Assembly: GCA_023430685.1 (NCBI GenBank)
Contig: JAEYZH010000024.1
Span: 1,372 to 65,371, forward strand
Length of the DNA: 64,000 nucleotides
Direction: 5' to 3'
From: Pseudomonadota bacterium
GTDB taxonomy: Bacteria > Pseudomonadota > Gammaproteobacteria > Xanthomonadales > Rhodanobacteraceae
The translations under genes were made by a program, and so were the position numbers. The notes under the pieces were generated by a model. It was given only the letters and a program-made list of their open reading frames with translations. It did not search any database and was not told the DNA's origin. Numbering within the stretch: position 1 is the stretch's first letter; each line of letters starts with the position of its first letter. Below, piece after piece: positions 7,919 through 24,200 of this stretch.

Positions 7919-8032
7919 ATTTCCCCTGCGAATCATGCGCTTAGGTCGCGAATTCGCCCCTCGCAACAGTGGCGAAAACGTGCTATCGCAGAGTAACAGA
8001 ATCAAATGCTTGCGCGCCGCAACCGGAGAGCT

Positions 8033-8293
8033 CTATTCGGCCGGCGTCGCGACGACGCCTTTCCACCGGCACTCGGGACACCCTGGGCCGCGACACGCAG
8101 GGCACCACGAGAACTGCCACAGGATGCGGTGCCGCTGCCGGCCGCCGCACTCGCACTCGACGCCGGGCGCGGTTTCCGTCCCAGCCATGTGCAGCCCGCA
8201 GCCGAAGATGCCGCAGCCGTCGCACACACAAGCTGGAATCGCGCGCAGCGGCGGGGTCAGGTACTCGCTGAGTGGAGGTCGGGCGCGGGCCAT
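8033..8293 (-). CDS. Small Cys-rich (zinc-ribbon-like) hypothetical protein
   Basis: 86 aa with 12 Cys (CVCDGCGIFGCG..., CECGG..., CPACRGPGCPEC). High third-position GC, but no convincing RBS. Confidence 0.35.
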   Translation of the reverse strand: MARARPPLSEYLTPPLRAIPACVCDGCGIFGCGLHMAGTETAPGVECECGGRQRHRILWQFSWCPACRGPGCPECRWKGVVATPAE

Positions 8294-8384
8294 GCGCGAA
8301 GGATATGCACGCCGACATCAGGAACTGAGACGGTCGGGACGCGGGACAGGATCCGTGGTTACAATCCATAGACAGGAGGGAGCA

Positions 8385-8750
8385 ATGCGAACGATTGCGC
8401 TTGCAGCCGCGATGGCGGCATCGATGCTGGTTTCCGGCAGCGCTGTTGCCGGAGGACTCATCGTCCACTGGCCCGGCGGCGAGGTGACGTCGTACACCGG
8501 CCACGTCGTCTACTACGATCCCGACCCGGGCGCGGACAACCTGTCCGGCGCGAGCTTCGTCGAGGATTCGGCCGCCGAGGTCTACGAGAGCGACGCGATC
8601 TTCGAGAGCCCCTTCGGGAGCGCCCCTACCGACTGGCGCTGGCGCGTCGTGAAAGAGGTCGGCGGTCATGCGACCGGCGCCGGTTACTGCGCGTCGTCCT
8701 TCGACGGGCAGCTGCTCGAGCTCACCTGTATCCCCTATCCGGATGACTAA
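8385..8750 (+). CDS. Small secreted protein (121 aa), unknown function
   Basis: AGGAGGGAGCA precedes the ATG at 8385. Signal peptide MRTIALAAAMAASMLVSGSAVAGG. The rest of track ORF 7836..8750 is an off-frame extension. Confidence 0.6.
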   Translation: MRTIALAAAMAASMLVSGSAVAGGLIVHWPGGEVTSYTGHVVYYDPDPGADNLSGASFVEDSAAEVYESDAIFESPFGSAPTDWRWRVVKEVGGHATGAGYCASSFDGQLLELTCIPYPDD

Positions 8751-8795
8751 GCTCGCAGCCTTTGGGCTCCAAGGTCGAAGCGACCACGCGATCAC

Positions 8796-9158
8796 GTGGC
8801 TATTCCGCGGCTCATAGCTCTCACCGGCAGGCTCGGAATTGCCTTGGCAACCGTCGTAGTTGTCGGAGCGCTGCTGACCATCTCGCTCCGAGGGTGCGTC
8901 GCCGATGTACGCCAAGCGTTCACCGACGACGAGGATGAGCCGGACGTGGTGGTGGACTACTGTGACAGCGATTGCGCAGCGGAGGCAGCTGGCGAACTCT
9001 TCATGAACCGCGAATACGAATCGGCCATGACCGAATGCCAACACCGGGGGCCGGCCTTCACACTTGGCTGCACCAACTTTGTTTCTGAGCTCGAGGAGCC
9101 AGAAGTCCTCGATCGGCCCACCGCTGACGAAGAAGACGCGAGGCCATATTGGCGCTGA
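8796..9158 (+). CDS. Hypothetical membrane-anchored acidic protein at the prophage edge
   Basis: GTG start and N-terminal hydrophobic segment LGIALATVVVVGALLTISL. The region is locally lower in GC than both flanks. Convergent with the giant virion gene. No motif recognised. Confidence 0.3.
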   Translation: MAIPRLIALTGRLGIALATVVVVGALLTISLRGCVADVRQAFTDDEDEPDVVVDYCDSDCAAEAAGELFMNREYESAMTECQHRGPAFTLGCTNFVSELEEPEVLDRPTADEEDARPYWR

Positions 9159-9181
9159 CGTCGAGTGCGAACCGACGCGAA

Positions 9182-12100
9182 CTAATGAGTCGCCCGCGAA
9201 CGCGCATCCACGTCTGCTGCGAGTTCTGCACGCTCCGCGTATAGCGCTTCGAGTTCGATCCGCTTCTCGCGCGCGCTGAGCTCGCGGTCGTTCGCGACCG
9301 CCTTGATCCGCTGGTTGATCTTCTGCATGCGCTTGTTCGCGCCGGCGTAGATCGGCCGCTTCGCCAGGTCCGGATGGTCTGCCAGGTCTTCCTCGCGCGC
9401 GGTGTTTCCGGTCTTGCGAGCGTGGTTGTATGCCGCGTAGGTCTCTTCGACGTCGCCGAGGACATCATAGAAGCGCGCGACATACTTGTCCGAGTTCGCG
9501 TCGGCATTCTTCACGAAGTCGCCGGCGACGAAGACATTGTCGATCTTGGTGAGATCTCGGCGCGGGTTCGACGGCAATCCCATCGCATCTCGCAACATCA
9601 GGTCCGAGACGTTCATTGCCTGCATGCCGAGCCAGCCGAAGTAGCCCCGCACGATGTGGTCGACCTTCTTGGGTGAGACGTTCGCGACGCGACCGATCGC
9701 GACCGCGCCGGCCGTCGTGGTCGGGCCCACGCGATCCTGCGCCGGCAACCGCTCGTCGCCCATCGAATCGATCGGCGCCTGGCGGAAGGTGTCGTAGTTC
9801 GCCCATGCCTCGATCAACGGCTTCACGGCCTGCGGCACCGGGTTCATCGACAGCTGGTCGCCGAGGATGTTGGCCAGCGTGTGCGCGAAGTCCTTGGCGC
9901 GATAGTCGTCGCCGCCGACCGCCAGCTCCGTCATGCGCTCGACGACGGAGCCCATCGCCCCGACCTCGAACGGCTTCGGGATGAACAGCATCTTGTCGCC
10001 GAGCTTCACGCACCAGTAGGTGTCGCGCGCCCAGTCCGGCAGCGCCTTGTAGTCGTCGTCATCGCGCTGCAGCAGGTAGCTCAGTGCCGACGCGATTGCG
10101 ACGGCGCCGGCGACGGCAGCGAACCGTGCAGGGTTTGCGGCCGCGCCCTTGCCGAGCTTGTACGTGCCTTGGATGCGCGCATTGAGAAACGGCACGACGG
10201 CCGTCAGGAAGCGCACCGAGGCCCACTTCCCGCCCATCGTGAAGTCCATCAGGTCGCGTGCCTCGTAGCTCGCTTCGAGGTGCGTCGCGCCACGCGCGCG
10301 GGCACGCTCGTAGACCGCCGATCGGTTGATGGTTTCGGAGCGGTCGCCGACGTCGTTCCACCAGTCCCACGCCGCGCGTAGCGCGTTCTTCGCGCGTTCG
10401 GGCGTACCGAGGATCTGGGCGTCGTCGATGCCCATCTCGATCAACCGGTGCGCGTTCCGCGCCTGCTGGCCATCGTTGAGGCTGCCGAACCGAATCTTCC
10501 CGCCACCAGCGAGCATGCGCGCCGCGGTGGCGGACCCCTTCTTGGTCGCCTTCCAGCCGTTCATCATGTTGCGCAGCGGGTTGAACCCGGCGTCGTCCGA
10601 CACGGCGAGGACGGAAATGCTGTCGCGCAGGAGGTTGCGAATCCGGAAGCTGGGCGAGATCGTCACACCGGTCGTGAGCGCGTGCCGGAACCAGCGCATC
10701 GCATCCATCGCGCGGCCCTTGATGCCGCCGAAGTGCAGCGCCGTCAGCGCGTCCAGCACGAGCGGGTCGTCGACCAGGTAGTGCACCTGCTGCCCATGGT
10801 CCATGACCCAGACGCTGCCCTTCTCGGCCGAACCGATCTTCCGCGCGATACCCGTGTTCTCGGCGGCCGCGAGCGCCTTCGTCGCAGCCATGTTGCGCAT
10901 GCTGCTGGTCATCAGCATCGACCAGTTCGCCAGCGTGTTGGCGAGCAGATCCCGCAGTGGGTCCTTGCCGCCCTTCAGCGCCTTGAAGGCCTGCTGCTTC
11001 ACCAGCCCTCCGCCGACGCGCGCCGGCGAGAAGTCGGGGTTGTCCTCGGCAATGCGGTAGAACGGAACGTAGAACTCGTGCTCCCACGCTTTGCGTGACG
11101 ATGGGTCGATCAGTCCGGCTTCCTCCGCGATGTCGAGCACCGCCTTCTGGTATCGGCGGAATGCCGTGTGCGCCTTCAGGTACACCGTTCCACGGTCGCG
11201 GCCGTCGGCCATCGTCCCTTGGTTGAGAGATTTCAGTTCGGCGATTTGCTTGTCGGTGAAGTGCCGTTCGCGCCCCTCGCCCTTCAGGCGCTCGGCGCGA
11301 TTTCCGGCAACCCACGCGAGGAACAGGTCGTGCTCGCCCGCGAGGTCCGACAGGATCCCGCGCAGGCCTTGGCCATCGACGTCGACATCCAGCGCGCCGT
11401 CCGACAGCTTCGGTGTGCCATACAGAAACGCCGCCTCGAGCGCGCCGTCGGTGCCGCGCGACAGGCGCGCCTGCATGTATCCGGTGAAGTCGAGGTCCTT
11501 CAGCGGCGCGAACTGGTCGACAATGCCCTGCGTGATTCGCAGGCTTGCTCGATCCATGATCTCGCGGAAGCGGTCGCGGAGGTTCGTGATCCGCGGCGAG
11601 GCGCCAATGCTGCGCAGCGCGTCGACCTGCCCCTTCGAGAGGTGCGGCGCCGGCGCCGCGAAGCTGAAGGCCGTCGAGTTGTCGCCCGGGAGACGAACCT
11701 TGCCGTCGACCACGGCACGTCGGGCTTGACGCAGCACGTGGGCGAGATCGGCATCGGTGAGCTTCGCCAGCTTCGCGAATCCGTGCTCGCGCAACCATGC
11801 CTTGATCGCACCGATGTACTCGCGGATGCGCTGGCGAACCCCCGGCGGCCCGTTCTGCGCAAGATGCGCGGCGAGCTCGTCGAGCAGAATCGCGTTCTTC
11901 TGCGCCGCGGTCAGGTCCGCGCGCCCGAGCACGCCGCTTTCGTAGACCGAGAGGTCGATGCCATGCTTCTTGGCGTAGCGCCGAATGCCATCGATGCCGC
12001 CCATGCCCGTCGCGATTCGCTCGAGCGCTGCCGGCAGATCCTTCCCGAACACCAAGCGCATGCCCTGGTGGCCCCAGGACTCGTGGAAGATCGCTCGCTC

Positions 12101-15100
12101 GATGCCGAGCTCCGTGGCAAGATCGGGATGGCTTCGAACCAGCCAGAGACGGCCGTCATGCCACGCCGCGACTACATCGCTGCCATCCGAGCCCTGCTCG
12201 CGCGCCTCGGCTTGAAGCGCTTGCGGAAGCTCCCCGAAGGATTCGACCGCTTCAACACGCGGAGCGTTCTTCCACCCGGCGGTTGTCCGTTCGACGACCG
12301 CGTCGAGATCCACTTCGCTCGCCGTCGGGACTGATTCGGCGCGCGTCGAGCGCGACAGGAATGGCCGATCGGCGACGGTGCGCTGACCGCTGCCAGCAAC
12401 CGAGGTTGCCTTGTTCCCATCGAGGTGGATGACGTCCAGCGCGCGGATATCGCCGTCGCTCAGCAAGCGCGCGATGTTGCGGCCGGCCTCGACGTTGCGC
12501 GACACCACGATGGCTGCTGCAGCATTCGCTTCCGTCACCTGCCTCATCACATGGGCGGCGCCGGTGTCGATGTCGCCGGTGCGCAACTTGGCCATCTCCG
12601 CTTCATCAAGCGGTAGGAAGCCGACGGGCCGATGTCGGTTGTCGAGCAGCAGCACGCCAGATTCTTGGCGCTCTCGCGCGTAGCGCAGAGCATCCTGCGG
12701 GTCTGTGATCGCGGCGCGATCGTTCGGCGGCACGCGCCGCAGCGCACGCTCTTGGATTGGCACGTCTACATTGCGACGGCTGGCCGTCACGCCATCGACT
12801 ACCGTGCTCCCGTCTTCGGGGCGGAACAGCGACGCCCGTCGGTTGCCGGGCGCGACGACGATCATGCCGTGCGTCTCGATGCCAGAGCCATCCATCAGGT
12901 TGCGAAGAAGGCTCGTGATGGCTTTGTCGGCGGCGCTTTGCTCGATGACGCCCGAAGGGTGGTTGTGCGCGAACCACACGTGGCGAGCGCCAGGCACCTG
13001 CGCGACAGCGCCGAACACAGTGCCGGGGGCCACGGATGAGCCGTCGATGGTTCCGACGCTATGCCGAATGACCGCCAGAGGGCGGCTGCTCGCGTCGGCG
13101 ACGACGGCGAGCATTTGCTCCTGCGGCGACTTGCGCAGCGGCGCGATGATGTGCGCGACGTCCTGCCAGCCGGAGATGCGCTCGATCCCTGCCCGGAAGG
13201 ATCCGGTCGTTACTAGGCGGGCGTTTTGCGCAAGCGTCGCAGCTTTGCGGCGGAGAGGGATGGTGCCGACGGCGGGCGAGGCGAAGAGGTCGAGCTGACC
13301 AGATACCTCGCCTCGGGCTCCCCGTCGAGCTTGTGCACGCGTCGGATCGGCAACGCTTCCACGTTCCGACTCAGGCGATAGCGGGCGGGTTTCTCCATAG
13401 GTCGCGGCGTTCTCTCGAACTTCTCCGAGATCGATTACTTCTGGCTCTCGAACGGATTCACCAGCTTCGGCTCGCTCGTCTTGAGTTCGTTCCCGGCCAT
13501 CACTGCCAGGCCGATCAGCGCCCGGTCGAGCCTCTGCAGCAGGGCGTCCCCCTGCAGTGAAGAGCGATCCGCTCGTTCGGATTCGGTTGTCGTCTGCATT
13601 GATTCGCTCCACCTCGCCGATCGCGCGGCGAGTCACGTCCTCGGCGCTCGCCGGCGACCGACCAAACATATCACCGTTCTGCGCTGCCTGTTGCTCGGCA
13701 GCCACGGCGCGCGCCGCCTCGCGCAAGCCCGTCGCCATGCGCGAAACCGACCGCGCATTCGCGCCGAACATTCGTGCCCACTGGTCGCCGGAAGTGTCGC
13801 GCGCGATCAGGTCTCCCTGAGCGAGGAACGCTTCGATGCGCTGCCCGGACTCGCGTGCGGCACGGAGTACGTCGAAGGCAGCTGCGATGCGCGACGGATA
13901 GTCACCGAGCGACCCGGTGCGATCCACCTTCGCCCACTCTGGCGCCGCACGCACGAGCGCGCTGAGCACGTTGCGGGCATCGGGGTCCGCGTCCTCTGCC
14001 ATCGCGGCGATCATCCGGTCGCTGCCGTAGGCGCGCGCGAACACGGCCGCTCGGAGGCGGTCGAAGAACGTCTTGTTGGGCCGCCCCTCGCCATCGACCA
14101 GTTTCGCCGCTTCGTTGGCGCCGAGGTTCCGGAGGAACGCGCGATAGAACGGCGAGGCCGGGTTGGTCGACAGGTCACCGGCATCCGTTACCGGCAGTTC
14201 GTCGAGATCAGGGAGCGCTCGCGCATCCGTCCGCGCCTGCTCGGTCGGAGAGAGCCCGAGGTTCGTCGAGGCATTGGACTCGGCGCCCATGTCGCCGACG
14301 TTGTGCTCGGCGTCGTAGAGCCGGATCAGCACCGGGTTGCGCTTGCCGGCGATCGCTTCCGCGCTGACGCCGTGCAGCGCGGCGTCGTCGATCAGACCCT
14401 GCCGATACGACTCGGCCGTGCCACGCTTCCAGGCGCCCTGCAGGCCGGCCACGCGCCCATTGTTGAGCGCGCGCAGTCGAGCCTTCGCGTAATGGGCGTT
14501 CGCCGTGCCGTCCGCAGAGTGCGACGCCGCGACATCGTCGGCTTCGACCACGGCATACCGGACGGGAATGCGGCGACCGGTCGACGGCATCACGACGTGG
14601 TCCTCGCGTCCGAGGTCGGCTTCCGGCACGGCGCGCGCGGACTCGGCGGCCGAAACCATCGGTGCGCCGGAGTTCGGGTCGCGCGAAAACGACAGGCGCT
14701 GCGCATCCGGCGCGCCCGCGATGCCCTGCATCTGCGCCACGCTCGCGGCGCGGGACCGGTCGCGGTTCTGGAGCGTCAGTCCGCCGTCGGCTTCCGCTGC
14801 ACGCCCTGCAGCGCCCGGGTCTGCACCAGGCAATCCGCTGACATCTCCACCACCCGACCGCGCGGCGGCTCCGGCGTTGCTTCCGTCGCTTCCGGGCGCG
14901 GGACCACCTTGTCCGGTCCGCGCCAATGTGGTTGCTGCTCGATCATTGTTGGCTCCTTGCTGTGGTTGCTGTGCACGCCACGCCTCGAAATCGCGCCGCG
15001 CCTTGTTTCGCAGGATGACGCCACCGCCACGCTGCACGAGAACACCGCCGACGCCGGCCGCCCGAAGCGCCTTGCGCACGCGTGAAACGTCGCCTGGGAT

Positions 15101-17992
15101 GAATACCCCATCACCGTCGACACGCGCCTTGGCCAGCGTCTTTGCGTGCTCCCGTGGTACAATTGCGCCGGAGGTAGGACCAATGGAACTTGATCCGCGC
15201 AACGCCGATCCGCGCTCGCTTCCGCCGGGCACCGAATGGTTCGATGACTGGGACGCCGGCTTGATCGCGCTGCTCCCGCCAGGCACCTCGCCCCGCATGC
15301 TGGCCTTCGAAGACGGTACGTCCCGTGCGATCTTCCGCGACTCGCCGCTCGGCAAGGCTGTCGGCTCCACTCGCGAACTGACGTCGCCGGTGGAAATAGA
15401 GCGCGCCATCGTTGAAGCAGGCTTCCCTGCGACAACGTCGGCCCAAGCTGCGGCGTAGATCTCCCGCATCCGGGCTACCAACTCGGCGTTTTTTGCCTGT
15501 TCCGCCGGCGTCAGCGCGCGGTCCTCTCGCGCAGCCTTTGCGCGGATTGCGCGCTGTTCCTCGTAGAGCTTGTGCCCCGCGTCCTTCGCGCGAAGCATCT
15601 CCGGCGTGTTGATCTGCAGTTCGACCGTGTGCCCGTCGACCCTGACGTTCATATTCACGTCGCGGTAACCGCCATCGATCCCGTCCACAGACGGGTCAAG
15701 CGTGTTGCGGAACTTCGTCGGCTTCCCGAACCGGCGCTCGACAGCCGCAATCACGGCCGGCACCTGGTCGAGGCGATCGACGACGAGCGTGCCGCGAACC
15801 AGATCCTTCAACTTCGTCGGGTCATAGGTGCCGTCCTCGATGTTCCGGTAATCGGACAGCGTTTTCTCGCCGGCACGCTTCACACCCTTCAGCGGCGCGA
15901 GCATCGGCCGCTTGGAGAGGCCGAGTTCGCGAGCGATTCCCGCAACGCCACGTTCGAACGCTGGGCGCGCGGCTTCCGCGCTCTCGTAGTGCGCGCGCAG
16001 ACCGCTGCGCGTGGCGTCGTCCAGATCGGCATGCGCGTCGAGCTCGGCACCCCAGTCAGCGCGCGGCGCTTCCTTCTTCGTGTTGCCGCTCGACAGCCAT
16101 TCGCGGAACTGCCGCATGTCGCCGAACCGGCTCACCGATCCGAGGCCCTGCCATCCTTCCTCGTAGTTCGCGGCGTACCCCTCGCGCGCGTCCGTCTCGG
16201 TCGGGAAGCCGATCATGACCTTGTGCTCGTCGAACTTTCCGGTCTTGGGATCGACCTGGTTCACTACGAACACGGGGAGGTCGGCGACGTCGTCGGCGTT
16301 CGCCTCGGGGCCGAGGAACGTGTCGACGTGATCCTTGTCCTTCCCGACGGTGCCGCGGATGTATCCGTAGTGGTGCTGCAGTGGCTCCCATTCTTCGCGG
16401 CGGCGCGATCCAGCTGGGTTCTCGATGCTGATGTCGAGACCACCGATGCGCATGTGCCCCTTGCGATAGTTGCCCGCCTCTTTCTGCGCCGGCGTCGGCT
16501 CAGGGAGGTCGTTCTTCGGCGAGGTCGCCGCGGCGTGCGCGGCCGCTTCGAACTGCGACTCAGCGTCCTGGCCAGCCATCCACCACGGCGGCGCGTCGTC
16601 GTCGCGCTGCTGCGCGAGGTCTGGCTGTTCCTGCGAGTTCTCGCGGCGCGAAACCGCGCGCTCGACATCCGGCGTCAGGCCCAACTCGGCCTTGCGCTGC
16701 GCGTCCGCTTCCATTGCAGCGGTGAGGCCGAAGCGTTGCGACGGCGTAGTCGCTGCGCCGGACGGCGACACCTCGATGATTTGCGCAGGCAGCGCCAGCA
16801 CGGGAGGCTGCGCGGCTTGACCTGCATTCGGTTGCTGCTGGTCGTCCCAGACGACGCCGTCTTCTTCGCCAGCACGGTTGAGGATGTCGCGCACGCGATC
16901 GCGCGGCTCGACACCGCCATTGGATGCGCGCGGCGCGCGCGCGCGCTCGGGTGCGCCAGGCAGTGGCGCTTCCGGACGCGGGCCCAGCGCGGCTCCCATG
17001 CCGGCGCCGAGCAGCGCGGATACCGGCGCTTGGCGCGGATCGAACAGCGGTCGATCGAGCTTGTCCGGCAGGGCCTCATTGACCAGCCCGACCTGAGCCG
17101 AGTCGGCGACGACGTTCGAGCCAGCGCCCTGCAGCGCGCGCGCGATCGCAGACCCTGGCGCACTGATCGGCGCGGCGTTCACCAGCGCATTTGCGCCGAA
17201 CTCGGTCGCGGCAGCCGTCAGGGCATCGCCGGAGTCGCCGCCGGCGCGCAGAACGTCGATGCCTGTACGAGCACCCATCGCTGCGCCGGGTACGAGCGAG
17301 GCCTTCGCCGAATGCTCGAGCGCACTCGCCAAGCCGCTCCGCACTGCTTCACCAGCGGTCGCTGCACCACGCATTGCGGCCGGCGCGGCGCTTACGCCGC
17401 CGGTGAGATACATGGCGCCGATGTCGGGAATCATGCGCGTACCGGCGAACGCAAGCCGCTCGCCAAGGTCCGCGTCCTGTCGCGGCTGCAACGCGGTGTC
17501 CGCGTCGAACGCGCGGTCGACCATGTTGCGCATCCAGAAGTCGGTGGCTGCGCTGTCGCCGCGCACGAAGTCTGCGGCCGCGGCAACCGGCGCTCCGGCG
17601 AGCAGGTTCGCCGTGCCAGCCGTGCCGTGCATCCACGATCGAGGTCCCCGAACCACTGGGTTGTCGACGATGGCCTCGGCGACGGGGTTGTCGAACAGAT
17701 GGGCGAACGGATCCGCCCCTTCCATCATCGAACGCAGGCCCGGCGCGCGCGGCGCGGGCGACGACGCTTGGGTGCCGTCCACAGGCTGCGGAAGCGGCAC
17801 TTCACCCGAGGCCTGCGCCGCGGTGATCGCGGTCGACATGCCGCCGGCACGCACGTTCCCGAAGTCCGGAGCGGCATCGTCCCACTGGATCGCATCAGCG
17901 GAGATTGCTGGCGCGTCGTCCCACTGGATACCGCCCGCGGCTTGCGGCGCGTCGTCCCAGACGATGCTGTTCGGGTCAAACGGGTTGGGCAT
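9182..17992 (-). CDS. Giant (2,936 aa) polyvalent virion/ejection protein: pyrophosphatase-like + RelA/SpoT-like + ParB-like + RadC/JAB modules and a large C-terminal region
   Basis: One uninterrupted ORF starting at ATG 17992 after AAGGAAGG. Motifs: NYRKGH..IENPAGSRR..YGYIRGTVGKDKDHVDTFLG (aa ~505-640); DLVRGTLVV, GYRDVNMNV, VELQINTPEM, HKLYEE (aa ~655-830); ALNNGRVAGL (aa ~1075-1230); HNHPSG..SAADK (aa ~1590-1720). It is the last gene of the virion module. Confidence 0.9.
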   Translation of the reverse strand: MPNPFDPNSIVWDDAPQAAGGIQWDDAPAISADAIQWDDAAPDFGNVRAGGMSTAITAAQASGEVPLPQPVDGTQASSPAPRAPGLRSMMEGADPFAHLFDNPVAEAIVDNPVVRGPRSWMHGTAGTANLLAGAPVAAAADFVRGDSAATDFWMRNMVDRAFDADTALQPRQDADLGERLAFAGTRMIPDIGAMYLTGGVSAAPAAMRGAATAGEAVRSGLASALEHSAKASLVPGAAMGARTGIDVLRAGGDSGDALTAAATEFGANALVNAAPISAPGSAIARALQGAGSNVVADSAQVGLVNEALPDKLDRPLFDPRQAPVSALLGAGMGAALGPRPEAPLPGAPERARAPRASNGGVEPRDRVRDILNRAGEEDGVVWDDQQQPNAGQAAQPPVLALPAQIIEVSPSGAATTPSQRFGLTAAMEADAQRKAELGLTPDVERAVSRRENSQEQPDLAQQRDDDAPPWWMAGQDAESQFEAAAHAAATSPKNDLPEPTPAQKEAGNYRKGHMRIGGLDISIENPAGSRRREEWEPLQHHYGYIRGTVGKDKDHVDTFLGPEANADDVADLPVFVVNQVDPKTGKFDEHKVMIGFPTETDAREGYAANYEEGWQGLGSVSRFGDMRQFREWLSSGNTKKEAPRADWGAELDAHADLDDATRSGLRAHYESAEAARPAFERGVAGIARELGLSKRPMLAPLKGVKRAGEKTLSDYRNIEDGTYDPTKLKDLVRGTLVVDRLDQVPAVIAAVERRFGKPTKFRNTLDPSVDGIDGGYRDVNMNVRVDGHTVELQINTPEMLRAKDAGHKLYEEQRAIRAKAAREDRALTPAEQAKNAELVARMREIYAAAWADVVAGKPASTMARSISTGDVSSRVEPTALPSGESRKIARDVPSSKASMRGEVPGGSSAIKPASQSSNHSVPGGSERGSALRGSSSIGPTSGAIVPREHAKTLAKARVDGDGVFIPGDVSRVRKALRAAGVGGVLVQRGGGVILRNKARRDFEAWRAQQPQQGANNDRAATTLARTGQGGPAPGSDGSNAGAAARSGGGDVSGLPGADPGAAGRAAEADGGLTLQNRDRSRAASVAQMQGIAGAPDAQRLSFSRDPNSGAPMVSAAESARAVPEADLGREDHVVMPSTGRRIPVRYAVVEADDVAASHSADGTANAHYAKARLRALNNGRVAGLQGAWKRGTAESYRQGLIDDAALHGVSAEAIAGKRNPVLIRLYDAEHNVGDMGAESNASTNLGLSPTEQARTDARALPDLDELPVTDAGDLSTNPASPFYRAFLRNLGANEAAKLVDGEGRPNKTFFDRLRAAVFARAYGSDRMIAAMAEDADPDARNVLSALVRAAPEWAKVDRTGSLGDYPSRIAAAFDVLRAARESGQRIEAFLAQGDLIARDTSGDQWARMFGANARSVSRMATGLREAARAVAAEQQAAQNGDMFGRSPASAEDVTRRAIGEVERINADDNRIRTSGSLFTAGGRPAAEARPGADRPGSDGRERTQDERAEAGESVREPEVIDLGEVRENAATYGETRPLSPESERGSVADPTRAQARRGARGEVSGQLDLFASPAVGTIPLRRKAATLAQNARLVTTGSFRAGIERISGWQDVAHIIAPLRKSPQEQMLAVVADASSRPLAVIRHSVGTIDGSSVAPGTVFGAVAQVPGARHVWFAHNHPSGVIEQSAADKAITSLLRNLMDGSGIETHGMIVVAPGNRRASLFRPEDGSTVVDGVTASRRNVDVPIQERALRRVPPNDRAAITDPQDALRYARERQESGVLLLDNRHRPVGFLPLDEAEMAKLRTGDIDTGAAHVMRQVTEANAAAAIVVSRNVEAGRNIARLLSDGDIRALDVIHLDGNKATSVAGSGQRTVADRPFLSRSTRAESVPTASEVDLDAVVERTTAGWKNAPRVEAVESFGELPQALQAEAREQGSDGSDVVAAWHDGRLWLVRSHPDLATELGIERAIFHESWGHQGMRLVFGKDLPAALERIATGMGGIDGIRRYAKKHGIDLSVYESGVLGRADLTAAQKNAILLDELAAHLAQNGPPGVRQRIREYIGAIKAWLREHGFAKLAKLTDADLAHVLRQARRAVVDGKVRLPGDNSTAFSFAAPAPHLSKGQVDALRSIGASPRITNLRDRFREIMDRASLRITQGIVDQFAPLKDLDFTGYMQARLSRGTDGALEAAFLYGTPKLSDGALDVDVDGQGLRGILSDLAGEHDLFLAWVAGNRAERLKGEGRERHFTDKQIAELKSLNQGTMADGRDRGTVYLKAHTAFRRYQKAVLDIAEEAGLIDPSSRKAWEHEFYVPFYRIAEDNPDFSPARVGGGLVKQQAFKALKGGKDPLRDLLANTLANWSMLMTSSMRNMAATKALAAAENTGIARKIGSAEKGSVWVMDHGQQVHYLVDDPLVLDALTALHFGGIKGRAMDAMRWFRHALTTGVTISPSFRIRNLLRDSISVLAVSDDAGFNPLRNMMNGWKATKKGSATAARMLAGGGKIRFGSLNDGQQARNAHRLIEMGIDDAQILGTPERAKNALRAAWDWWNDVGDRSETINRSAVYERARARGATHLEASYEARDLMDFTMGGKWASVRFLTAVVPFLNARIQGTYKLGKGAAANPARFAAVAGAVAIASALSYLLQRDDDDYKALPDWARDTYWCVKLGDKMLFIPKPFEVGAMGSVVERMTELAVGGDDYRAKDFAHTLANILGDQLSMNPVPQAVKPLIEAWANYDTFRQAPIDSMGDERLPAQDRVGPTTTAGAVAIGRVANVSPKKVDHIVRGYFGWLGMQAMNVSDLMLRDAMGLPSNPRRDLTKIDNVFVAGDFVKNADANSDKYVARFYDVLGDVEETYAAYNHARKTGNTAREEDLADHPDLAKRPIYAGANKRMQKINQRIKAVANDRELSAREKRIELEALYAERAELAADVDARSRATH

Positions 17993-18009
17993 CTCGCCTT
18001 CCTTGGCGG

Positions 18010-19245
18010 TTACTCGAGGGGCAGAATCGTTCCATCCTCGTACTGCGCGACGCGGCGCCCGTTCGCGGTTCCAGTGCGCACCACGCGACCGTGCGAGCCG
18101 CCAGGCGCTGGCGATGTGCCTGGCCGGGCACCACTGCGCTGTGGCTGCGCGGCGAAACGCGGTGGCGGCGCAGCTCCCTCATCGCCCCACTGCGGATCGA
18201 CGCGTCGTGGCGCCCACCAGCCCTCCGCTTCCGGATGCGCGCGGCGCATGTAGTGGGCCGTGACCTTCGCGGCATCGTCAGCGCGCGCGCCGTCCTTCAC
18301 CTGGTCGGCGTAGAACTTGGCGGCGATCTGCGCCGGGGTGCCCTCGCGCTCGCGGCCGGCCAGCGTTCCCTTTGCCGGCTGACCGGATTCGTCCATGATC
18401 GGCGCCGTGCGGCCGGTGGCGTAGTCGAACTGCTGCAGCGATCCATCGTCGCCGCGCACGAGCTCGGTGAAGTTCTTCGGGTTTTTCGCGCGCGCCGCGG
18501 CTTCTTCCTGCTGCGATCGGATGCCCTCGAAGGCAGCCTGCACGTAGATGCGCGGGTCGACCATCGTCGCCGCTGCGCGCAGCAACTGATCCTGATTCGC
18601 GAACTGGGTCACCTTGCCGCCGGCGCTCGTGATCGTGAACGAACCGTCTTCGTTCTGCGTGATTCCTGCGATGGGAGCGCCCCCGAAGGATCCGATCGTG
18701 CTGTTGTACGCTTCGGCCAGGCCGTTCCAATCGCCGGTCGCGCGGCCCTGCGCAAATCCCGCGCCGATCGCGTTCCGCGCCTTCGCAATGCCCATGTCGA
18801 GGCGCTTCTCGTCGATGCCCATGCGCTCGAGCTCGATGCGCATCGCATTGAGCGACATGCGCTGCCCGCTCTCGGCCATGCTCTGGCGCTTGGCCTGCTG
18901 GCCGAGATCGAACTCCGCATCCTCCTGCGCATACTTGGTCGGCAGGCGATCCAGTTCCATACGACCGCGCTCCGCCTGCATGCCGCGGATCGAGCGGTCG
19001 AGGCCGTACGTCTCGTCTTCGCGCTGCTCGAGGATAGGCCGACGTTTCAGCATGTGTGACCGATCCTCGAGCCCGTGCTCGAACACCGTCTCCACACGCT
19101 CGTCCGCGCGCGCCTCTCGCCCAGCCTGACGCTCGCGCTCCGCCCGCGCCTCCGCGTCCAGCGCGTTGCGGCGGTTGATTTCGTTCTGCTGGTCCCATCC
19201 ATCCATCAGGCCCTGCAGGATGCCGCCGGTCGCGAGGCCTGCCAT
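18010..19245 (-). CDS. Internal virion / ejection protein candidate (411 aa)
   Basis: Coiled-coil, charged protein positioned between another internal-protein candidate and the giant protein. The ATG at 19245 overlaps the upstream stop (TGATG), with GGAGG 6 nt upstream. Confidence 0.6.
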   Translation of the reverse strand: MAGLATGGILQGLMDGWDQQNEINRRNALDAEARAERERQAGREARADERVETVFEHGLEDRSHMLKRRPILEQREDETYGLDRSIRGMQAERGRMELDRLPTKYAQEDAEFDLGQQAKRQSMAESGQRMSLNAMRIELERMGIDEKRLDMGIAKARNAIGAGFAQGRATGDWNGLAEAYNSTIGSFGGAPIAGITQNEDGSFTITSAGGKVTQFANQDQLLRAAATMVDPRIYVQAAFEGIRSQQEEAAARAKNPKNFTELVRGDDGSLQQFDYATGRTAPIMDESGQPAKGTLAGREREGTPAQIAAKFYADQVKDGARADDAAKVTAHYMRRAHPEAEGWWAPRRVDPQWGDEGAAPPPRFAAQPQRSGARPGTSPAPGGSHGRVVRTGTANGRRVAQYEDGTILPLE

Positions 19246-19916
19246 CACACACCTCCGAACATGTTGTTGCCCGAGTACTCATTCACGAGCGAGCTGACGC
19301 CGCGGCCCATCATCTGGGCGCCGGCGGCCGCCGCTTGGGAATACTGGTCTGCCCTAGCGCCGTACATCGCCGCCTGCCCGCCGAATGCGCCGCCGAGCGC
19401 GCTGCTGCCGGCATTCATCGTGTTGAGCGCGTTCGCTTGCGCGCCGCTCGACAGGCTCGCAAAGCTGGCGAGCTTGTTAAACCGGGTGTCCTTGGCGGCC
19501 TTACGCGCCTGGTTGTTGCCGTTCACCTGCGCCATCGCGCGGCCGAGTCCATACTGGGTTTCGCTCGCGCTGAACGCACCGTCGGTCGGATTCACGCCGT
19601 AGCGCTCCATCGTCCGGCGATTGATGTCCTGCGCAGTGTCGAAGGACATGCCGACGTCTGCGGCGATCGCACCATAGTCGGGGCGCTCTTCTTCCATCGC
19701 GAGCTCGCGGAAACTGGTAAGCGCCGGCATGTAGAGCTGCTTCCAGTCCTCGTACTGCTCCTTGCCGAAGTCCAGCTGGTCCTGCGCAACCTGCGCCTGC
19801 GCATCCATCGACTGCTGCTGGCGCTTGGAGGCCTTGTCGGATGCCTTGCTTGCCTTGTTGGCGCTGTACGCGCCGGCTGCGACCGTCGCGACGGCCATCG
19901 CAGTTACTGCGGCCAT
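19245..19916 (-). CDS. Internal virion protein candidate (223 aa, Ala/Gly/Gln-rich)
   Basis: AAGGAG lies 8 nt upstream of the ATG at 19916. The N-terminus MAAVTAMAVATVAAGAYSA is hydrophobic, and composition is typical of podovirus internal core proteins. Confidence 0.55.
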   Translation of the reverse strand: MAAVTAMAVATVAAGAYSANKASKASDKASKRQQQSMDAQAQVAQDQLDFGKEQYEDWKQLYMPALTSFRELAMEEERPDYGAIAADVGMSFDTAQDINRRTMERYGVNPTDGAFSASETQYGLGRAMAQVNGNNQARKAAKDTRFNKLASFASLSSGAQANALNTMNAGSSALGGAFGGQAAMYGARADQYSQAAAAGAQMMGRGVSSLVNEYSGNNMFGGV

Positions 19917-20365
19917 TGCACCAGCTCCTTGGTGTAGCAGCTTTCGCTGAAGCGGTATCCCATCCGCTCGTAGAGGGCCGCCGCTTGGGGCGGGCTGTTC
20001 GACAGGTGCACCATCTGGATGGCCACGGCGCCAGCGGCGCGGCAGGCTGGCTCGACTGCCGAGAGCAGCGCGTGTCCCGCGCCGGACTTGCGCGCGTCAG
20101 GATCGACCCACCACACCACTTCGTGCGCAGTGCGCACCGCATGGTTGAACATGAATGGCGCGATGAACAGGCCGGCCATCCCGACCACGCGACCATCAAC
20201 CTCCGCGACCAGCATCGTGCCGGTCTCCATCATCGACCGCGTGAGCGCCGCGACTGCATCCTTCGACATCGACACGAATCTGGCATAGCTCGTGGTCGCG
20301 TAGAACGCACGCGACATCGCGACGATCGCTTCCAGATCCGCTTCGGTGGCGAGGCGGACGATCAC
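19904..20365 (-). CDS. GNAT-family N-acetyltransferase
   Basis: VIVRLATEADLEAIVAMS..., the acetyl-CoA-binding segment VWWVDPDARKSGAGHALLSAVE, and ALYERMGY. The GTG start at 20365 overlaps the upstream stop (GTGA). Confidence 0.8.
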   Translation of the reverse strand: MIVRLATEADLEAIVAMSRAFYATTSYARFVSMSKDAVAALTRSMMETGTMLVAEVDGRVVGMAGLFIAPFMFNHAVRTAHEVVWWVDPDARKSGAGHALLSAVEPACRAAGAVAIQMVHLSNSPPQAAALYERMGYRFSESCYTKELVQWPQ

Positions 20366-20637
20366 GACGCCGCAACCCCTAGAATGACGCCGAGCGCAAA
20401 CGGCGCCACGCAAGTACCGCGCTCGCTATTGGCCCGCTCGGCGGCCAACGCGCTGCGTTCCAATGCGGCAACTTCACGTCGACGCAGCAGAAGCAGTTCC
20501 CGGTCGCGACGCCACGCGGCCGCTTCATGCGGCGGCATGCCTGCCGTCACGGTAGCGACGAGCTGCTGTTCTCTCCTTGCCGCGTACTGCGCAACATCGA
20601 TCTGAGCCATCGCCGCGGCCGCTGCGATCACGAACAT
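20362..20637 (-). CDS. Small hypothetical protein (91 aa) with hydrophobic termini
   Basis: AAGGAG lies 5 nt upstream of the ATG at 20637. The long 5' extension in the ORF track is off-frame-like. Confidence 0.5.
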   Translation of the reverse strand: MFVIAAAAAMAQIDVAQYAARREQQLVATVTAGMPPHEAAAWRRDRELLLLRRREVAALERSALAAERANSERGTCVAPFALGVILGVAAS

Positions 20638-21259: not shown

Positions 21260-24200
21260 TTACGCGATATGCATCGCGATCACGTTCCAACCTTGCATGA
21301 TCGAAAACTGCGCCTCAGCCATCGTTTTCATGTTGAGCCGGACGTAGTACTGGCCCGGCGTCGGCTGGACGACGCCCATGATCGTGAATGGCCAAACTTC
21401 GGGGGCGAAGTCGTCCACGACCTGCTCCTGGATCAGGTAGCCGGAAGTGTCCTCGTAGCCTGCGGCGCCGCCGCTGCCCGTCAGCGTCGCCTTGAACATG
21501 TAGCCCTTGTGATCGTTGCCGCCGCTGGACTGGGTCGCCAGCGTTCCGGAAATGATGATGAGGATGCGCGGCGCGCCGCCGCTGCGAGTCGGCTTCACGT
21601 TGATGCGGCCGCCCGAGACGGCCACCTGCACAATGCTCGAGGCGCGCGGGTTTGCGCCGCCGAATCCGGACCATCCCGAGCCAGGTCCAGCGTCGCTGGC
21701 CAGCGAAGGCAGCATCAGGCCAGAGTCGCCAAGGAACAGGTCGGTGTTGAAGCCTGCGCGCGCCTGATCGTCGCGAACCCAGAAGGCGCCGTTCGCTTCC
21801 GACCTACCCTCGCCCGCCGTGCCGTAGTTCGCGCGAGGACCGATCCACATGGCGAATCGCTGGCCCGGCTGGCCGTCTCCACCGATCGAGGCGACATTGA
21901 TGCCATCAGTCGCGATCACCGCATCGTCGCCGACGGAGAGGTTGCCGCCGACAAACAGGTTGCCCAGCCGGTCGAGCTTGAACGCTTCCTGCCCGGTCGC
22001 TGGCTTCCAGTAGCGCAGCGGGTACTGGCTGGTCACTGGATTGTTCATCTCGATGATGAAGTTCGAGATGCTGTCGTAGCTGCTGGGGTCCAATGCGCCG
22101 GTGCCGGGTGTGCCGGCGATCAGGCGCTGTCCAATGACGACGTTCGCGTTCACCACCTCGGCCTGCAGTTGGTGGATGAATGCGGTCTGCGCCGTCAACA
22201 CGTCGAAGTCGGCCTCGGTCGCGCGCACGAGCCCGTCGACCACGAGCTTGCCGCGGATCCCGACAACACCGCGCGTCGTGTCGATGACGAACGGGATATT
22301 CGGCGCCGGCATCAAGGCGTTCTTGTAGACGTTGAGGTCGCTCGCGTTCGAGAACGATCCGTTGTCCGTGCGCTTCACGCGCACCGTCGACCCGCTGACG
22401 GATACGACTTCCACTTCGAGGCCCGCCAGGCCGATGCCAGCGAGCGGGTTCGGGCTCTGCCCCTGCGGGTTGCCGTCGGTGATCGCGAAGACGGCCGTGT
22501 TCGGATGCTCGGCGTCGTCGCTCGCGCGGATGCCATGGTTCGAAGTGCCGAGCGCTATGTTTGCCTCGACGCCGGTCCCGATGCGGGAAATGCTCTGGAT
22601 CACGCCACCGGCCATGCCGGTGCCCATCACTGCGAATTGATTCGCATTGATCAGGAAGGTGCTCAGCGTCTCGAATTCGCCCTCTTCGTTCTGCGAGGTT
22701 TCCAGTCCGAGCCCGAAGCCGGCCGCGTAGACCAGGCCGTCTGAGGTGATCTCGCGCATGCGCACGGACCACATTGCTTCCACTGCGCCATCCGCGTGCT
22801 GGGCGATCTCCATCGCTTGCTGCGCCTGTACCGTTGCTTCCCCGATCGACGTCTCGAGCGCGGCCACCTCGCGCGCGATGACGCTTCCAGGCTCCGCGCT
22901 GACGAAGACGTTGTGGAACACGCTGGCGATGAGGTCGATGAAGTCGTCCGGATCGTTCCCGCCACCAGCTCCCGCAGCGCCGATCGTCACGCCCGTGACG
23001 GCAACGCCCGCGCCAAACGGGACGGAGTTGCCCGGGATGTTCAAGATGACATTCGGCCCGCCGACGCTGAATACCGTTTGGTTGCCGGCGATGCTGCTGA
23101 GCGGACCAGATGGCGCGATCAGGTTGATCGTTTGACCGGCGGAAAAGTTGCTGCCGGCCGAAGGGTTGGCGAGTGTCAGCAGGATCTGAGATGGCAGTTC
23201 CGCAGCGCGCGTGTAGGAGAAGACGGCGAACTGCTCGCCGCCGCTGTTATCCGCCGCTGCCTGCGTGATGGCAGCCTGCCAGATGTTCACCTCTTCGAGG
23301 TTCGCCGCGTTCTCTTCGGCGATGCCCGTCACGTATCCGATCCGCTGGATCAACGTCTGGCTGCCGGGCGGCTGATCGCTCACGCCGATGATGCGGATGA
23401 GCTGCTGGTTGATCTGGCCGTGCAGTGCGTCATCCAGCGAAGCGATGTAGTTCGTGACGCCGCCCGCCTGCATGATCGGGTTGAACGCCGCGGTGTCGAA
23501 GAACTGACCCACCAGTTGCCGGTAGATCGACGTGTTCTGCACGTTCGTGATGAGCTGACCTAGCACCAGCGCAGGGTCGATCGAGAGTTGTCCGCTCGCG
23601 CCGAGTAGCGGCGCGTACGGACCAGGCACGCCCGCCGTCGACACAAACCGGACCCAGTACCAGTAGGTCGTCGGGTTGAGCGCATCGCCCAGCGGATCGG
23701 CCGTGGTGTCGAGCCTCACGAGGTCCGCATCGGTGAAGATCGTTCCGGCACCGGTGCCAGCAAAGTCGGGATGTACGTTGCCCGGCCCGATCGGCCGGTT
23801 CGGCTGAGGCATGGCGCCGAGGTTGAACGTCGGCGCAATCGGATTGCCGGCGCCATCCCTGCCCGCCTCAGGCTTGCGAAAGAGCTCCGCGTAGGCGTGG
23901 TTGTGATAGTCGGGCGGGTTCCACGTGACCATCAGTCCGCTTGGCGCGATGTGATGCACCGAAACGCCTGTTGGCGCTGGCGGCGGCGTGAAGTCGTCGT
24001 CGCCGAAATCCGGATCTCCCGGGTCGAAGATCGGACTGCCGGGATCATCGCCACCACCATCGCCTGGGCCGACCACCGCAGCTCCGCCGCGCCCGACGTT
24101 GACCTTCGCGATGCCGGCGTCGCCGAGTTCGCGAAGCGTGACGAAGCGATCGAGCGGATCACCGCGACGGCCGTAGCCGACCTCAACCGACTCCTTCAGA

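Follow-up and report, generated by a model that had tools for sequence, protein, structure and literature searches.

A predicted phage-type polyvalent protein of 2,936 residues with a Tas1-like synthetase domain and a C-terminal LPD38 module in the virion gene block of a Rhodanobacteraceae prophage

The window analysed here, the whole 64,000-nt stretch of contig JAEYZH010000024.1, contains a gene for a 2,936-aa protein (9182..17992, minus strand) that starts with ATG and runs without an internal stop to its stop codon at 9182-9184. A Shine-Dalgarno-like AAGGAAGG lies ∼5 nt before the ATG, and a gap of 17 nt separates the gene from the stop of the preceding gene. Each 900-nt segment of the ORF has a GC3 of 0.70-0.91, with GC2 as the lowest position, and because this pattern is alike in all segments, one frame is coding throughout. 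Independent metagenome assemblies carry the identical protein, NCBI records hold one copy of it too, and a 2,942-aa relative sharing 91% identity is collinear with it end to end. The single uninterrupted ORF described in an earlier sequence-only reading is thus real. Long spurious ORFs do arise in high-GC DNA (e.g., an 893-aa antisense ORF at 15572-18253), so one could suppose that assembly or frameshift errors had fused several genes, but the agreement among assemblies, the collinear relative, the uniform frame signal, and the presence of the same C-terminal module in dozens of homologues of 2,000-5,000 aa leave this explanation a vanishingly small probability, and we regard a chance ORF or a mis-assembled fusion as excluded. 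The gene had no megablast match among 50,697 phage records, and an NCBIfam search of the protein returned RadC alone, below threshold.

The neighbouring genes are those of a phage structural module (large terminase, portal, major capsid, tail fibre, and internal virion protein). The 2,936-aa gene closes this module as its last large gene, ahead of the junction of prophage and host; the sequence-only reading had likewise put it last in the virion module. Upstream, a tail fibre gene is followed by an acetyltransferase gene, two small or medium genes, and then the 2,936-aa gene. The acetyltransferase is of the GNAT type (19904..20413, minus strand; phrog_1249, E 4e-27, and Pfam Acetyltransf families). 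The two genes after it had been called internal-protein-like, a description that gains some backing for one and none for the other: the 223-aa product (19245..19916, minus strand) has weak matches to virion structural and DNA ejection PHROGs (phrog_8003, 7.5e-8; phrog_21132, 1.7e-5), and the 412-aa product (18010..19248, minus strand), which matched no PHROG, phage, or Pfam entry and no phage by tblastn, is a candidate internal virion protein by position only. Downstream lie two small ORFs with no tblastn match in phages. Both look like exported proteins, their N-termini resembling a signal peptide or lipobox, and on this ground we rejected the possibility that they are Tis1-like cytoplasmic immunity proteins. 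Next to the 2,936-aa gene we saw no immunity gene of the Tis1 or Aph1 kind.

The nearest portals to that of this prophage are those of Rhizobium phage RHph_TM3_14A and HMO-2011-type phages (25-32% identity), not those of Bcep22 or 933W, and a phage of the Bcep22 lineage was rejected on this ground. The sequence-only reading had compared the position of the gene with the one that T7-like and Bcep22-like phages use for ejected core proteins, and Pelagibacter podophage HTVC034P supports the comparison with T7. There, tail tubular B is followed by an acetyltransferase (in the same place relative to the next two genes as here), an 'internal virion protein B-like' gene, a 580-aa gene, a gene with an LPD38 module, and the tail fibre gene; the layout is as here, but ends at the tail fibre gene. 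The slot of the LPD38-module gene is presumably that of T7 gp16, since in T7 also a large internal protein gene stands just before the tail fibre gene. None of the three genes upstream of the 2,936-aa gene, the 223-aa and 412-aa genes included, resembled its positional counterpart in HTVC034P by BLASTP.

The extreme N-terminus of the protein bears three aromatic-acidic repeats (aa 10-42; 17867..17965, minus strand), with WDD at aa 12, 24, and 37; the triple WDDAP repeat reported for aa 10-40 is found, its third copy reading WDDAAP, and a fourth copy, VVWDDQ, occurs at aa 382. Other LPD38 giants, otherwise unrelated, begin with comparable two- to threefold [FW]-[DE]-rich repeats. The repeats form part of an acidic, Ala-rich region (21% Ala; aa 1-450; 16643..17992, minus strand) that has no Pfam or PDB match and only three homologues among the matches listed. 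Following it is an InPase domain (aa 502-633; 16094..16489, minus strand), previously recognized as a family-I pyrophosphatase-like core at aa ∼505-640 and matched here by PF18823 (E 3.6e-44) over profile positions 2-134 of 135, i.e., nearly the full domain. The sequence displays ENP and D-K-D-H-V-D, which we take to be the metal ligands of family-I pyrophosphatases.

An Achromobacter phage homologue is annotated as a portal, an identity that we rejected for the 2,936-aa protein because it has no portal fold or profile; it resembles a portal chain solely through the InPase domain that Pa193 gp19 bears at its C-terminus (the unmodelled C-terminus of chain 9b41_L, E 8e-26), and a separate portal gene is present in the window (34707-36758). 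Pbunavirus portal proteins carry this InPase domain at the C-terminus, beyond the C-terminal barrel, the end of the portal that faces the capsid interior. A 'DarB-like' PHROG match was limited to the InPase region (aa 444-654). P1 DarB combines N6-adenine methyltransferase and helicase domains, and we found no methyltransferase or helicase Pfam domain in the 2,936-aa protein; a P1 DarB-like antirestriction protein was thus rejected.

The region at aa 650-835 (15488..16045, minus strand) is, judging from its sequence, clearly a RelA/SpoT-homologue (RSH) synthetase domain, closest to the (p)ppApp-synthesizing toxin Tas1/Apk1. In a single-sequence search, aa 664-805 matched Tas1 (PDB 6ox6) with E 1.6e-9, and a profile built from seven RSH sequences found Tas1 at 2e-22, followed by RelA, Rel, and the small synthetases RelP and RelQ at 1e-6 to 1e-2; in bits, Tas1 scored 83 and each (p)ppGpp synthetase at most 32. 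The RelA/SpoT-type nucleotidyltransferase that the sequence-only reading had placed at aa ∼655-830 is therefore borne out by the Tas1 match even though the domain misses the threshold of the Pfam RelA_SpoT model PF04607 (13.1 bits vs. 27, E 0.12), a model that also fails on most of its close relatives. Ten residues are invariant in the seven sequences (K702, R706, K710, D730, R733, G775, Y776, D778, E791, and Q793), and the K/R cluster, D-x-x-R, G-Y, and E-x-Q motifs, presumably catalytic as in RSH enzymes generally, align with Tas1. The domain's GY-x-x-N motif aligns with GYSGVN of Tas1; in long RSH enzymes, a His is found at that position. A word-indexed homologue search with this tile gave a single match, and an exhaustive HMMER search used instead gave 260 clusters at E 1e-30 or better, with proteins of 2,000 aa or more making up roughly a third of the best 150. 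We scanned seven mid-sized relatives (594-729 aa) for MuF, seeking a link to Apk2, and found none; six of the seven had no Pfam match at all and the other had RelA_SpoT only.

What the domain has in common with Tas1/Apk1, a T6SS effector, is an RSH synthetase domain and its conserved motifs, and Apk2 is fused to a phage-head protein, as the domain described here probably is too. It differs in being internal in a 2,936-aa chain, where the toxins have a PAAR or MuF carrier with the synthetase at its C-terminal end, and in that we saw no gene of the Tis1 or Aph1 immunity type next to this gene. Both Tas1/Apk1 and Apk2, the MuF-fused phage enzyme, synthesize (p)ppApp (PMC10083569). SaEAS yields (p)ppGpp as well as (p)ppApp, and related toxic small alarmone synthetases are reported to pyrophosphorylate tRNA instead. 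The domain could therefore be a tRNA 3′-CCA pyrophosphokinase (FaRel2- or CapRel-like) or a (p)ppGpp synthetase rather than a (p)ppApp synthetase, and would then stop host translation or trigger a stringent-like state at entry. Such an assignment has in its favor that each of these activities occurs among RSH toxins of very similar fold, that SaEAS has a dual product, and that Iyer et al. (2017, PMC5512222) suggested a host shut-off triggered by alarmones where polyvalent proteins contain a RelA/SpoT domain. Tas1 is nonetheless by far the nearest solved relative in profile score, and the GY-x-x-N alignment points the same way, so we hold a product other than (p)ppApp to be rather unlikely.

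Beyond a Gly/Ser/Ala-rich basic linker (aa 850-1070; 14783..15445, minus strand), which is probably disordered, matched no family, and has only two or three homologues among ∼120 related proteins, lies a DdrB-like ParB domain (aa 1073-1225) with a conserved extension (to aa 1480; 13553..14776, minus strand). PF18763 matches with E 7.6e-16, over profile positions 25-119 of 121 only and with an insert included, and PHROGs 5143 and 14770 also match this region. The ParB/DdrB-like domain (aa ∼1075-1230) and extension proposed earlier are both recovered: the conserved block reaches ∼aa 1480 in homologues, of which there are ∼55 over aa 1150-1450. A RadC-type JAB domain follows (aa 1607-1722; 12827..13174, minus strand; PF04002, E 3e-17), with a profile match to PDB 2qlc at E 4e-10 and a Foldseek TM of 0.82. 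Its HNHPSG(x5)S(xx)D signature, which begins at aa 1676, is intact, and seven homologues all keep its H, N, H, P, S, G, S, and D, in keeping with the RadC-type assignment made for aa ∼1590-1720. The protein thus has the JAB fold and the HxHx7Sx2D metal site in common with RadC, but here the domain is internal in a very large chain, and a second, RadC-like domain that lacks the HxH comes after it.

That second domain (aa 1743-1865; 12398..12766, minus strand) is possibly a degenerate JAB/RadC fold. As had been noted for aa ∼1775-1860, the HxH is absent; the RadC homology also claimed there is weak, with a collinear hhalign match to the RadC profile at a probability of 21% and E 0.001. In the AF2 model, both domains have the same order of elements (H-E-E-H-E-H-E-E), and the second always comes after RadC in the seven homologues. 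Foldseek gave weaker JAB and deaminase matches as well, in output that did not give the query region, and PDB sequence searches with aa 1720-2200 and with a profile of the second domain found no match. The helical domain that comes next (aa ∼1895-2100; 11693..12310, minus strand) contains the HESWGH motif at aa 1970-1975 (nt 12068-12085, minus strand), one residue off the 1969-1975 first given. H1970, E1971, and H1975 are kept in at least 90% of 21 homologues, and in the AF2 model a long helix (H372-407) begins at the HExxxH. No Pfam model matches this domain, and Foldseek matches to anthrax lethal factor were weak (E 0.4-0.8); since HEXXXH is a motif variant of polyvalent-protein metallopeptidases (PMC5512222), we consider it a putative zincin-like metallopeptidase. 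A Pfam search with eight tiles of the unassigned regions gave nothing significant, RelA_SpoT appearing below threshold only.

The remainder of the protein (aa 2150-2936; 9185..11545, minus strand) is the conserved C-terminal module of LPD38-type giant phage proteins (PHROG 18222, E 2e-202), with the Pfam LPD38 core at aa 2645-2816 (9545..10060, minus strand; PF18857, E 5.5e-38). The sequence-only reading had rightly seen an ∼800-aa region with one hydrophobic helix, but the region that it had left unassigned is this module, which it did not name. The helix, predicted as transmembrane at aa 2621-2641, corresponds to aa 2624-2642 (10067..10123, minus strand; Kyte-Doolittle mean 1.73), the sole stretch of the protein whose Kyte-Doolittle mean over 19 residues reaches 1.3 or more; it is helical in the AF2 model, is followed by a conserved DDDDY, and is kept in the consensus of two homologue alignments. 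The model of the ∼790-aa module (pLDDT 80, pTM 0.76) had no fold match in the PDB by Foldseek (best E 0.3, TM <0.15), and its BFVD matches were all LPD38 proteins, with TM up to 0.9. In related proteins the module is always C-terminal and is preceded by widely differing cargos (methylases, helicases, ADP-ribosyltransferases, and lysozymes), and some proteins of 955-1,428 aa consist mostly of it. A scan of a genome collection with the module gave no confirmed relative.

Along the protein, coverage by ∼120 related proteins changes stepwise, block by block: ∼3 at the N-terminus, 55 over InPase, 4-10 over RSH, 55 over ParB, 8 over RadC, 25 over the HExxxH domain, and 34-83 over the C-terminal module. 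Divergence from the 91% relative is also concentrated, with identity at 46-72% in the RSH domain and its following linker and at 92-100% elsewhere.

From its sequence and setting we assign the 2,936-aa protein to the phage-type polyvalent proteins (Iyer et al. 2017, PMC5512222), in agreement with the earlier appeal to that concept of the Aravind group. It combines at least two unrelated effector domains (four Pfam domains described in polyvalent proteins in that work, namely InPase, DdrB-ParB, RadC, and LPD38, together with the RSH domain and the HExxxH motif), includes an LPD domain (LPD38), and is encoded in a late, virion gene neighbourhood of a prophage; many effector domains in one huge polypeptide beside virion late genes are what characterize the class, and InPase, DdrB-ParB, RelA/SpoT, and LPD38 are listed there as specific to its phage type (PMC5512222). 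The suggestion that this combination may be undescribed is right only in a narrow sense. Among 120 matches listed, the full Pfam set was found only here and in the 91% relative, but overlapping sets (RadC+ParB+LPD38, RadC+InPase+LPD38, and RSH+LPD38) are common, and the set is one permutation within a combinatorial family.

The closest comparisons are LPD38-terminated giants, namely JC1 gp69/Bcep22 gp75, phi24B gp47, PTXU04 gp25, and WNO49116 of Achromobacter phage CF418P1. They share the C-terminal module (25-53% identity, BFVD TM 0.85-0.9), their genes stand last or nearly last in the virion block, as here, and in JC1 the LPD38 gene is also followed by two small opposite-strand genes. The cargo differs: JC1/Bcep22 have a lytic transglycosylase, a methylase, and a helicase, and phi24B has LPD5, LPD1, and MuF-C. 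Because the 2,936-aa protein lacks a methylase and a helicase, the 'DarB-like' label of JC1 gp69/Bcep22 gp75 does not apply to it. Virion mass spectrometry detected both JC1 gp69 (LPD38 at aa 4195-4401) and phi24B gp47, for which a trans-periplasmic conduit role has been proposed by the phi24B authors, and knockdown of PTXU04 gp25, which has the same C-terminal module (TM 0.85), strongly lowers plating efficiency, the protein being required for plaques. T7 gp16, of the gp14-gp15-gp16 ejection complex, likewise joins an N-terminal enzyme (a lytic transglycosylase) to a large helical body. For the C-terminal module, no sequence or fold similarity to any PDB chain was detected (no match at E below 0.3), and the correspondence to gp16 lies in gene position only.

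By analogy with these relatives, the 2,936-aa protein is probably packaged in the phage head, and we consider it likely that it is a carrier that is packaged and then ejected with an enzyme cargo. We infer virion packaging, ejection, and processing, as well as all of the enzyme activities and their targets. The LPD38 module, with its one hydrophobic helix, would lodge the protein within the capsid and, at infection, carry it out by way of the tail, and the variable N-terminal ∼2,100 aa would be a string of enzymes entering the cell with or just before the DNA. One of these would be the InPase-type pyrophosphatase. The Tas1/Apk-like RSH domain would most likely transfer pyrophosphate from ATP to the 3′-OH of adenine nucleotides, and the resulting (p)ppApp synthesis would deplete ATP and weaken host metabolism or the defences that depend on ATP. 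The DdrB-like ParB domain would bind or hydrolyse NTPs or nick DNA, the RadC/JAB metalloenzyme and the possibly degenerate copy after it would act on nucleic acid, and the putative metallopeptidase could split the chain into separate effectors. Against this scheme, sending an ATP-draining enzyme into a cell that the phage needs is counter-intuitive, and the C-terminal model matches no solved structure, be it a channel or the T7 ejection proteins. The flanking 223-aa and 412-aa genes show no BLASTP similarity to their HTVC034P counterparts, the RSH domain is below the Pfam threshold and its substrate cannot be read from sequence, the metallopeptidase fold is putative given the lethal factor scores, and an adjoining immunity gene was not seen.

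One may instead suppose that the protein is mainly a structural conduit for ejection, in which the LPD38 module, with its hydrophobic helix and perhaps the Ala-rich N-terminus, forms a trans-envelope channel as its essential task and the enzymes are dispensable or partly decayed. The PTXU04 homologue is needed for plaques although PTXU04 infects a laboratory E. coli, in which anti-defence cargo should be of little use; this, the conduit proposal for gp47, the presumed gp16 slot of the HTVC034P gene, the existence of proteins made up mostly of the C-terminal module, and the loss of HxH in the second RadC-like copy are all consistent with such a role. However, InPase, RSH, RadC, and HExxxH all have intact catalytic motifs that distant homologues share, which argues for selection on enzyme activity, and the module has no structural likeness to solved ejection proteins. 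We thus find a mainly structural role unlikely, although it is compatible with carriage of cargo and differs from it in emphasis. Still less probable is a prophage-borne polymorphic toxin serving bacterial competition or superinfection exclusion in the manner of MuF-fused toxins. The MuF-fused Apk2 is toxic and has immunity genes (PMC10083569), and the clustering of divergence from the 91% relative in the RSH domain and linker resembles that of toxin-immunity pairs, but no immunity gene was seen here, the gene sits within a late structural operon 17 nt from its upstream neighbour, and relatives have the LPD38 module as part of the virion.

More speculatively, and with considerable doubt on our part, the LPD38 module may be an essential ejection subunit of new structure, standing in for the T7 gp16 type in several podophage lineages and serving as a universal carrier of exchangeable enzymes, whose Tas1-like cargo here disarms ATP-dependent defences. 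If so, ATP and purine metabolism would collapse briefly at DNA entry, with a pyrophosphatase delivered alongside the (p)ppApp synthetase, and the highly variable stretch within the RSH domain would be the trace of an arms race against hydrolases or inhibitors of the host. Because Tas1/Apk-like RSH domains are common (260 clusters) and many are in giants, alarmone-type pyrophosphokinases may be frequent cargo delivered by virions. The LPD38 module is a good structural target for learning how podophages move large proteins out of the head. The 2,936-aa protein leaves the current understanding of giant polyvalent proteins unchanged, and is one more well-documented case in a class on which experimental work is scant. 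RadC also occurs in at least eight LPD38 or InPase giants of current databases, and its presence in phage-type polyvalent proteins extends the 2017 census (Iyer et al.).

Because G+C across the giant gene is 65–70%, long spurious ORFs occur in this DNA, but the giant ORF itself (9182–17992, −) is genuine despite that composition. It begins with ATG and runs for 2,936 aa without an internal stop, and since GC3 is high (0.70–0.91) and GC2 the lowest in every 900-nt segment, the reading frame is continuous along the whole gene. A ribosome-binding-like sequence (AAGGAAGG) stands 5' of the ATG, which lies 17 nt beyond the stop codon of the upstream gene. An identical 2,936-aa protein is encoded in independently assembled metagenomes and also has an NCBI record, and a 2,942-aa relative (P0002) aligns with it end to end at 91% identity; the single uninterrupted ORF proposed in the sequence-only reading was thus confirmed. 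An 893-aa ORF antisense to the giant gene (15572–18253, +) is no gene but a shadow ORF of the sort that high-GC coding DNA typically gives.

The window is mostly prophage, whose virion module includes the large terminase (38302–39750, −), portal (34707–36758, −), major capsid protein (32379–33323, −), an internal virion protein (24283–26292, −), the tail fibre (21260–24286, −), and several further structural proteins on the minus strand. Beyond the tail fibre, the gene order is a GNAT acetyltransferase (19904–20413, −), a 223-aa protein, a 412-aa orphan, and the giant gene, which is the last large gene at one prophage end because only two small plus-strand ORFs (8385–8750 and 8844–9158) and then host genes follow. 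It had been described as the last gene of the virion module, after two internal-protein-like genes; the terminal position stands and the 223-aa protein has weak PHROG matches (“virion structural / DNA ejection”), but the 412-aa protein is an orphan. A Bcep22-like placement was not upheld, as the portal has its nearest relatives (25–32%) in Rhizobium phage RHph_TM3_14A and HMO-2011-type phages, not in Bcep22. The two small ORFs, one with a signal-peptide-like start and the other with a lipobox-like LRGC, recall the “two reverse-strand hypothetical genes” after the giant gene of Bcep22-like phages; they have no phage homologue and are absent from the syntenic host flank of relatives. Past them lie host genes for a low-molecular-weight phosphatase, a thioredoxin/NHL protein, UvrC, PgsA, tRNA-Gly, and tRNA-Cys; the UvrC shares 79% identity with its Dokdonella ginsengisoli counterpart. 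Synteny of this block with Dokdonella and other Rhodanobacteraceae genomes ends near 7940, and the prophage-host junction is within ∼7940–9180.

The giant protein is a phage-type polyvalent protein of the LPD38-terminated subgroup, and the polyvalent protein concept of the Aravind group fits its domain set, LPD38 terminus, and virion-block position. Four Pfam families scored well over their curated thresholds: InPase (aa 502–633, E 3.6e-44), DdrB-like ParB (aa 1073–1225, E 7.6e-16), RadC (aa 1607–1722, E 3.2e-17), and LPD38 (aa 2645–2816, E 5.5e-38), bearing out the family-I pyrophosphatase-like core, the ParB/DdrB-like domain, and the RadC-type JAB domain recognized by eye. Homologue coverage is block-like: among ∼120 related proteins, about 3 cover the N-terminus, 55 the InPase, 4–10 the RelA/SpoT homologue (RSH) domain, 55 the ParB domain with its extension, 8 RadC and the RadC-like copy, 25 the HExxxH domain, and 34–83 the residues from aa 2150 to 2936. 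This last block, the LPD38 module, is C-terminal in every case, while its partners vary widely (methylases, SNF2 and ResIII helicases, ADP-ribosyltransferases, lysozymes, zeta-toxin-type kinases, and GGDEF). AlphaFold folds this module with confidence (pLDDT 80, pTM 0.76). A search of the PDB with the model gave no match (best E 0.3, TM <0.15); the predicted viral structures that it matched were LPD38 proteins only (TM up to 0.9). The one TM helix predicted near the C-terminus corresponds to the sole strongly hydrophobic helix of the protein (aa 2624–2642).

The catalytic residues of the RadC domain are intact, as had been noted: HNHPSG starts at aa 1676, all 7 homologues share the H-x-H...S-x-x-D residues, and the AlphaFold model of aa 1590–2150 (pLDDT 76) superposes on the RadC structure 2qlc with a TM of 0.82. 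The segment at ∼aa 1743–1865, invariably after RadC in homologues, is plausibly, though unproven, a second, degenerate RadC copy; its alignment to the RadC profile is collinear but weak (hhalign probability 21%, E 0.001), and its helix/strand order in the model is that of RadC. The HESWGH motif is indeed present (aa 1970–1975), with His1970, Glu1971, and His1975 kept in at least 90% of 21 homologous segments in the context (L/F)HExxGHxGLR. This very HEXXXH variant has been reported for a set of polyvalent-protein metallopeptidases (Iyer et al., PMC5512222). Because no Pfam model matches this domain and anthrax lethal factor gives only weak structural matches to it (E 0.4–0.8), we infer rather than assign a metallopeptidase. 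For aa 1–450 and the linkers at 850–1070 and 1480–1600, no relatives are detectable beyond 2–3 close homologues; the C-terminus, left unassigned by eye, holds LPD38. The triple WDDAP repeat was found at aa 12, 24, and 37 (17867–17965 in the window, aa 10–42). Two to three short aromatic-acidic repeats also open many other LPD38-type giants (P0008, P0106, P0006, P0010, P0028) with otherwise unrelated N-termini, in forms such as NWDDF(T/S)PV x2, IQWDDEAP/IVWDDQKA, FDPF x2, FDQFD(A/K)P x2, and TWEDD/TWEDE; such repeats might serve as a short linear motif that targets the protein to the capsid or portal.

The RelA/SpoT-type domain failed at the Pfam threshold (RelA_SpoT, 13 bits against a 27-bit cut-off) but was recovered by comparison with the sequence of the Tas1 crystal structure (PDB 6ox6), which aa 664–805 matched at E 1.6e-9 and a profile of 7 homologous segments at E 2.2e-22; RelA, Rel, SaSAS, and small alarmone synthetases came next with that profile (E 1e-6 to 1e-2). 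Invariant in the alignment are Lys702, Arg706, Lys710, Asp730, Arg733, Gly775, Tyr776, Asp778, Glu791, and Gln793, which we take to be RSH synthetase motif positions. The subtype is widespread (260 clusters at E 1e-30 or better in an exhaustive search); about one third of its best 150 matches are proteins of at least 2,000 aa, and both of the two large ones scanned carry LPD38. Only 1 of 9 scanned relatives reached PF04607 (RelA_SpoT), and this Pfam model mostly misses the Tas1-like subfamily. Identity to P0002 falls to 46–72% over aa 700–950 (window ∼15143–15892), the C-terminal half of the domain and the following linker, as against 92–100% elsewhere, which marks either a recombined patch or a stretch under diversifying selection. 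(p)ppApp is the product of both Tas1, now called Apk1, and Apk2, a MuF-fused phage enzyme (PMC10083569).

Other identities for the giant protein can be weighed against its domains and relatives. A DarB-like protein is ruled out, there being no methylase or helicase, and so is a portal protein. The homologue in Achromobacter phage CF418P1 is annotated “putative portal”, probably because Pbunavirus portals likewise bear an InPase at their C-terminus (Pa193 gp19, PDB 9b41_L, residues 636–760). This appended InPase probably also explains why tblastn turned up 293 Pseudomonas phage records. Residues 529–765 of the Pa193 portal were left unmodelled by its authors and the appended domain undiscussed. 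The giant protein has no detectable homology to T7 gp16. In Pelagibacter phage HTVC034P, the gene for a 1,229-aa module-bearing protein lies after an “internal virion protein B-like” gene and a 580-aa gene and before the tail fibre gene, which is the gp16 position in T7 gene order. JC1 gp69 (4,515 aa, LPD38 at aa 4195–4401), whose gene likewise has two small reverse-strand genes after it, was detected in CsCl-purified virions; phi24B gp47 (LPD5, LPD1, LPD38, MuF-C) is abundant in virions yet invisible in the cryo-EM map, and its authors proposed it to be an ejection protein; and knockdown of PTXU04 gp25 (2,197 aa) strongly lowers plating.

As read from its sequence, one gene product, whose gene closes the virion block, joins a conserved C-terminal module to modular N-terminal cargo with catalytic sites intact; virion presence and a requirement for plaque formation are shown for relatives only. 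The C-terminal module would direct packaging and exit, its single hydrophobic helix perhaps inserting into the inner membrane, and the cargo would pass into the cell together with the DNA. There, the HExxxH domain may free individual effectors, the RSH domain would most probably make (p)ppApp from ATP, the InPase could remove PPi or hydrolyse a nucleotide-like signal, and the targets of ParB and RadC would be nucleotides or nucleic acids, as argued by Iyer et al. (PMC5512222). No immunity gene is apparent adjoining the giant gene; the prophage may not need one, given that synthesis of the protein would come late, shortly before lysis of the cell.

The suggestion that this domain combination may be undescribed is sustained only in a narrow sense: among the 120 best matches, InPase, ParB, RadC, and LPD38 occur together only here and in the 91% relative, but overlapping sets exist. 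In a 2017 census of polyvalent proteins, RadC was found only in the conjugative-element type (PMC5512222); its presence in a phage-type protein extends that census, though it is not unique today. The giant protein is a careful example, unsurprising to a specialist, and its value lies in testable hypotheses on a Tas1-like enzyme carried in the virion and on a carrier fold yet to be characterised. The early or replication region of the prophage also has two large DNA methyltransferase genes (47436–49112, −, 558 aa; 50224–52689, −, 821 aa), and PHROG families of giant proteins match the C-terminal part of the first; one of them, phrog_5143, also covers the ParB extension of the giant protein.
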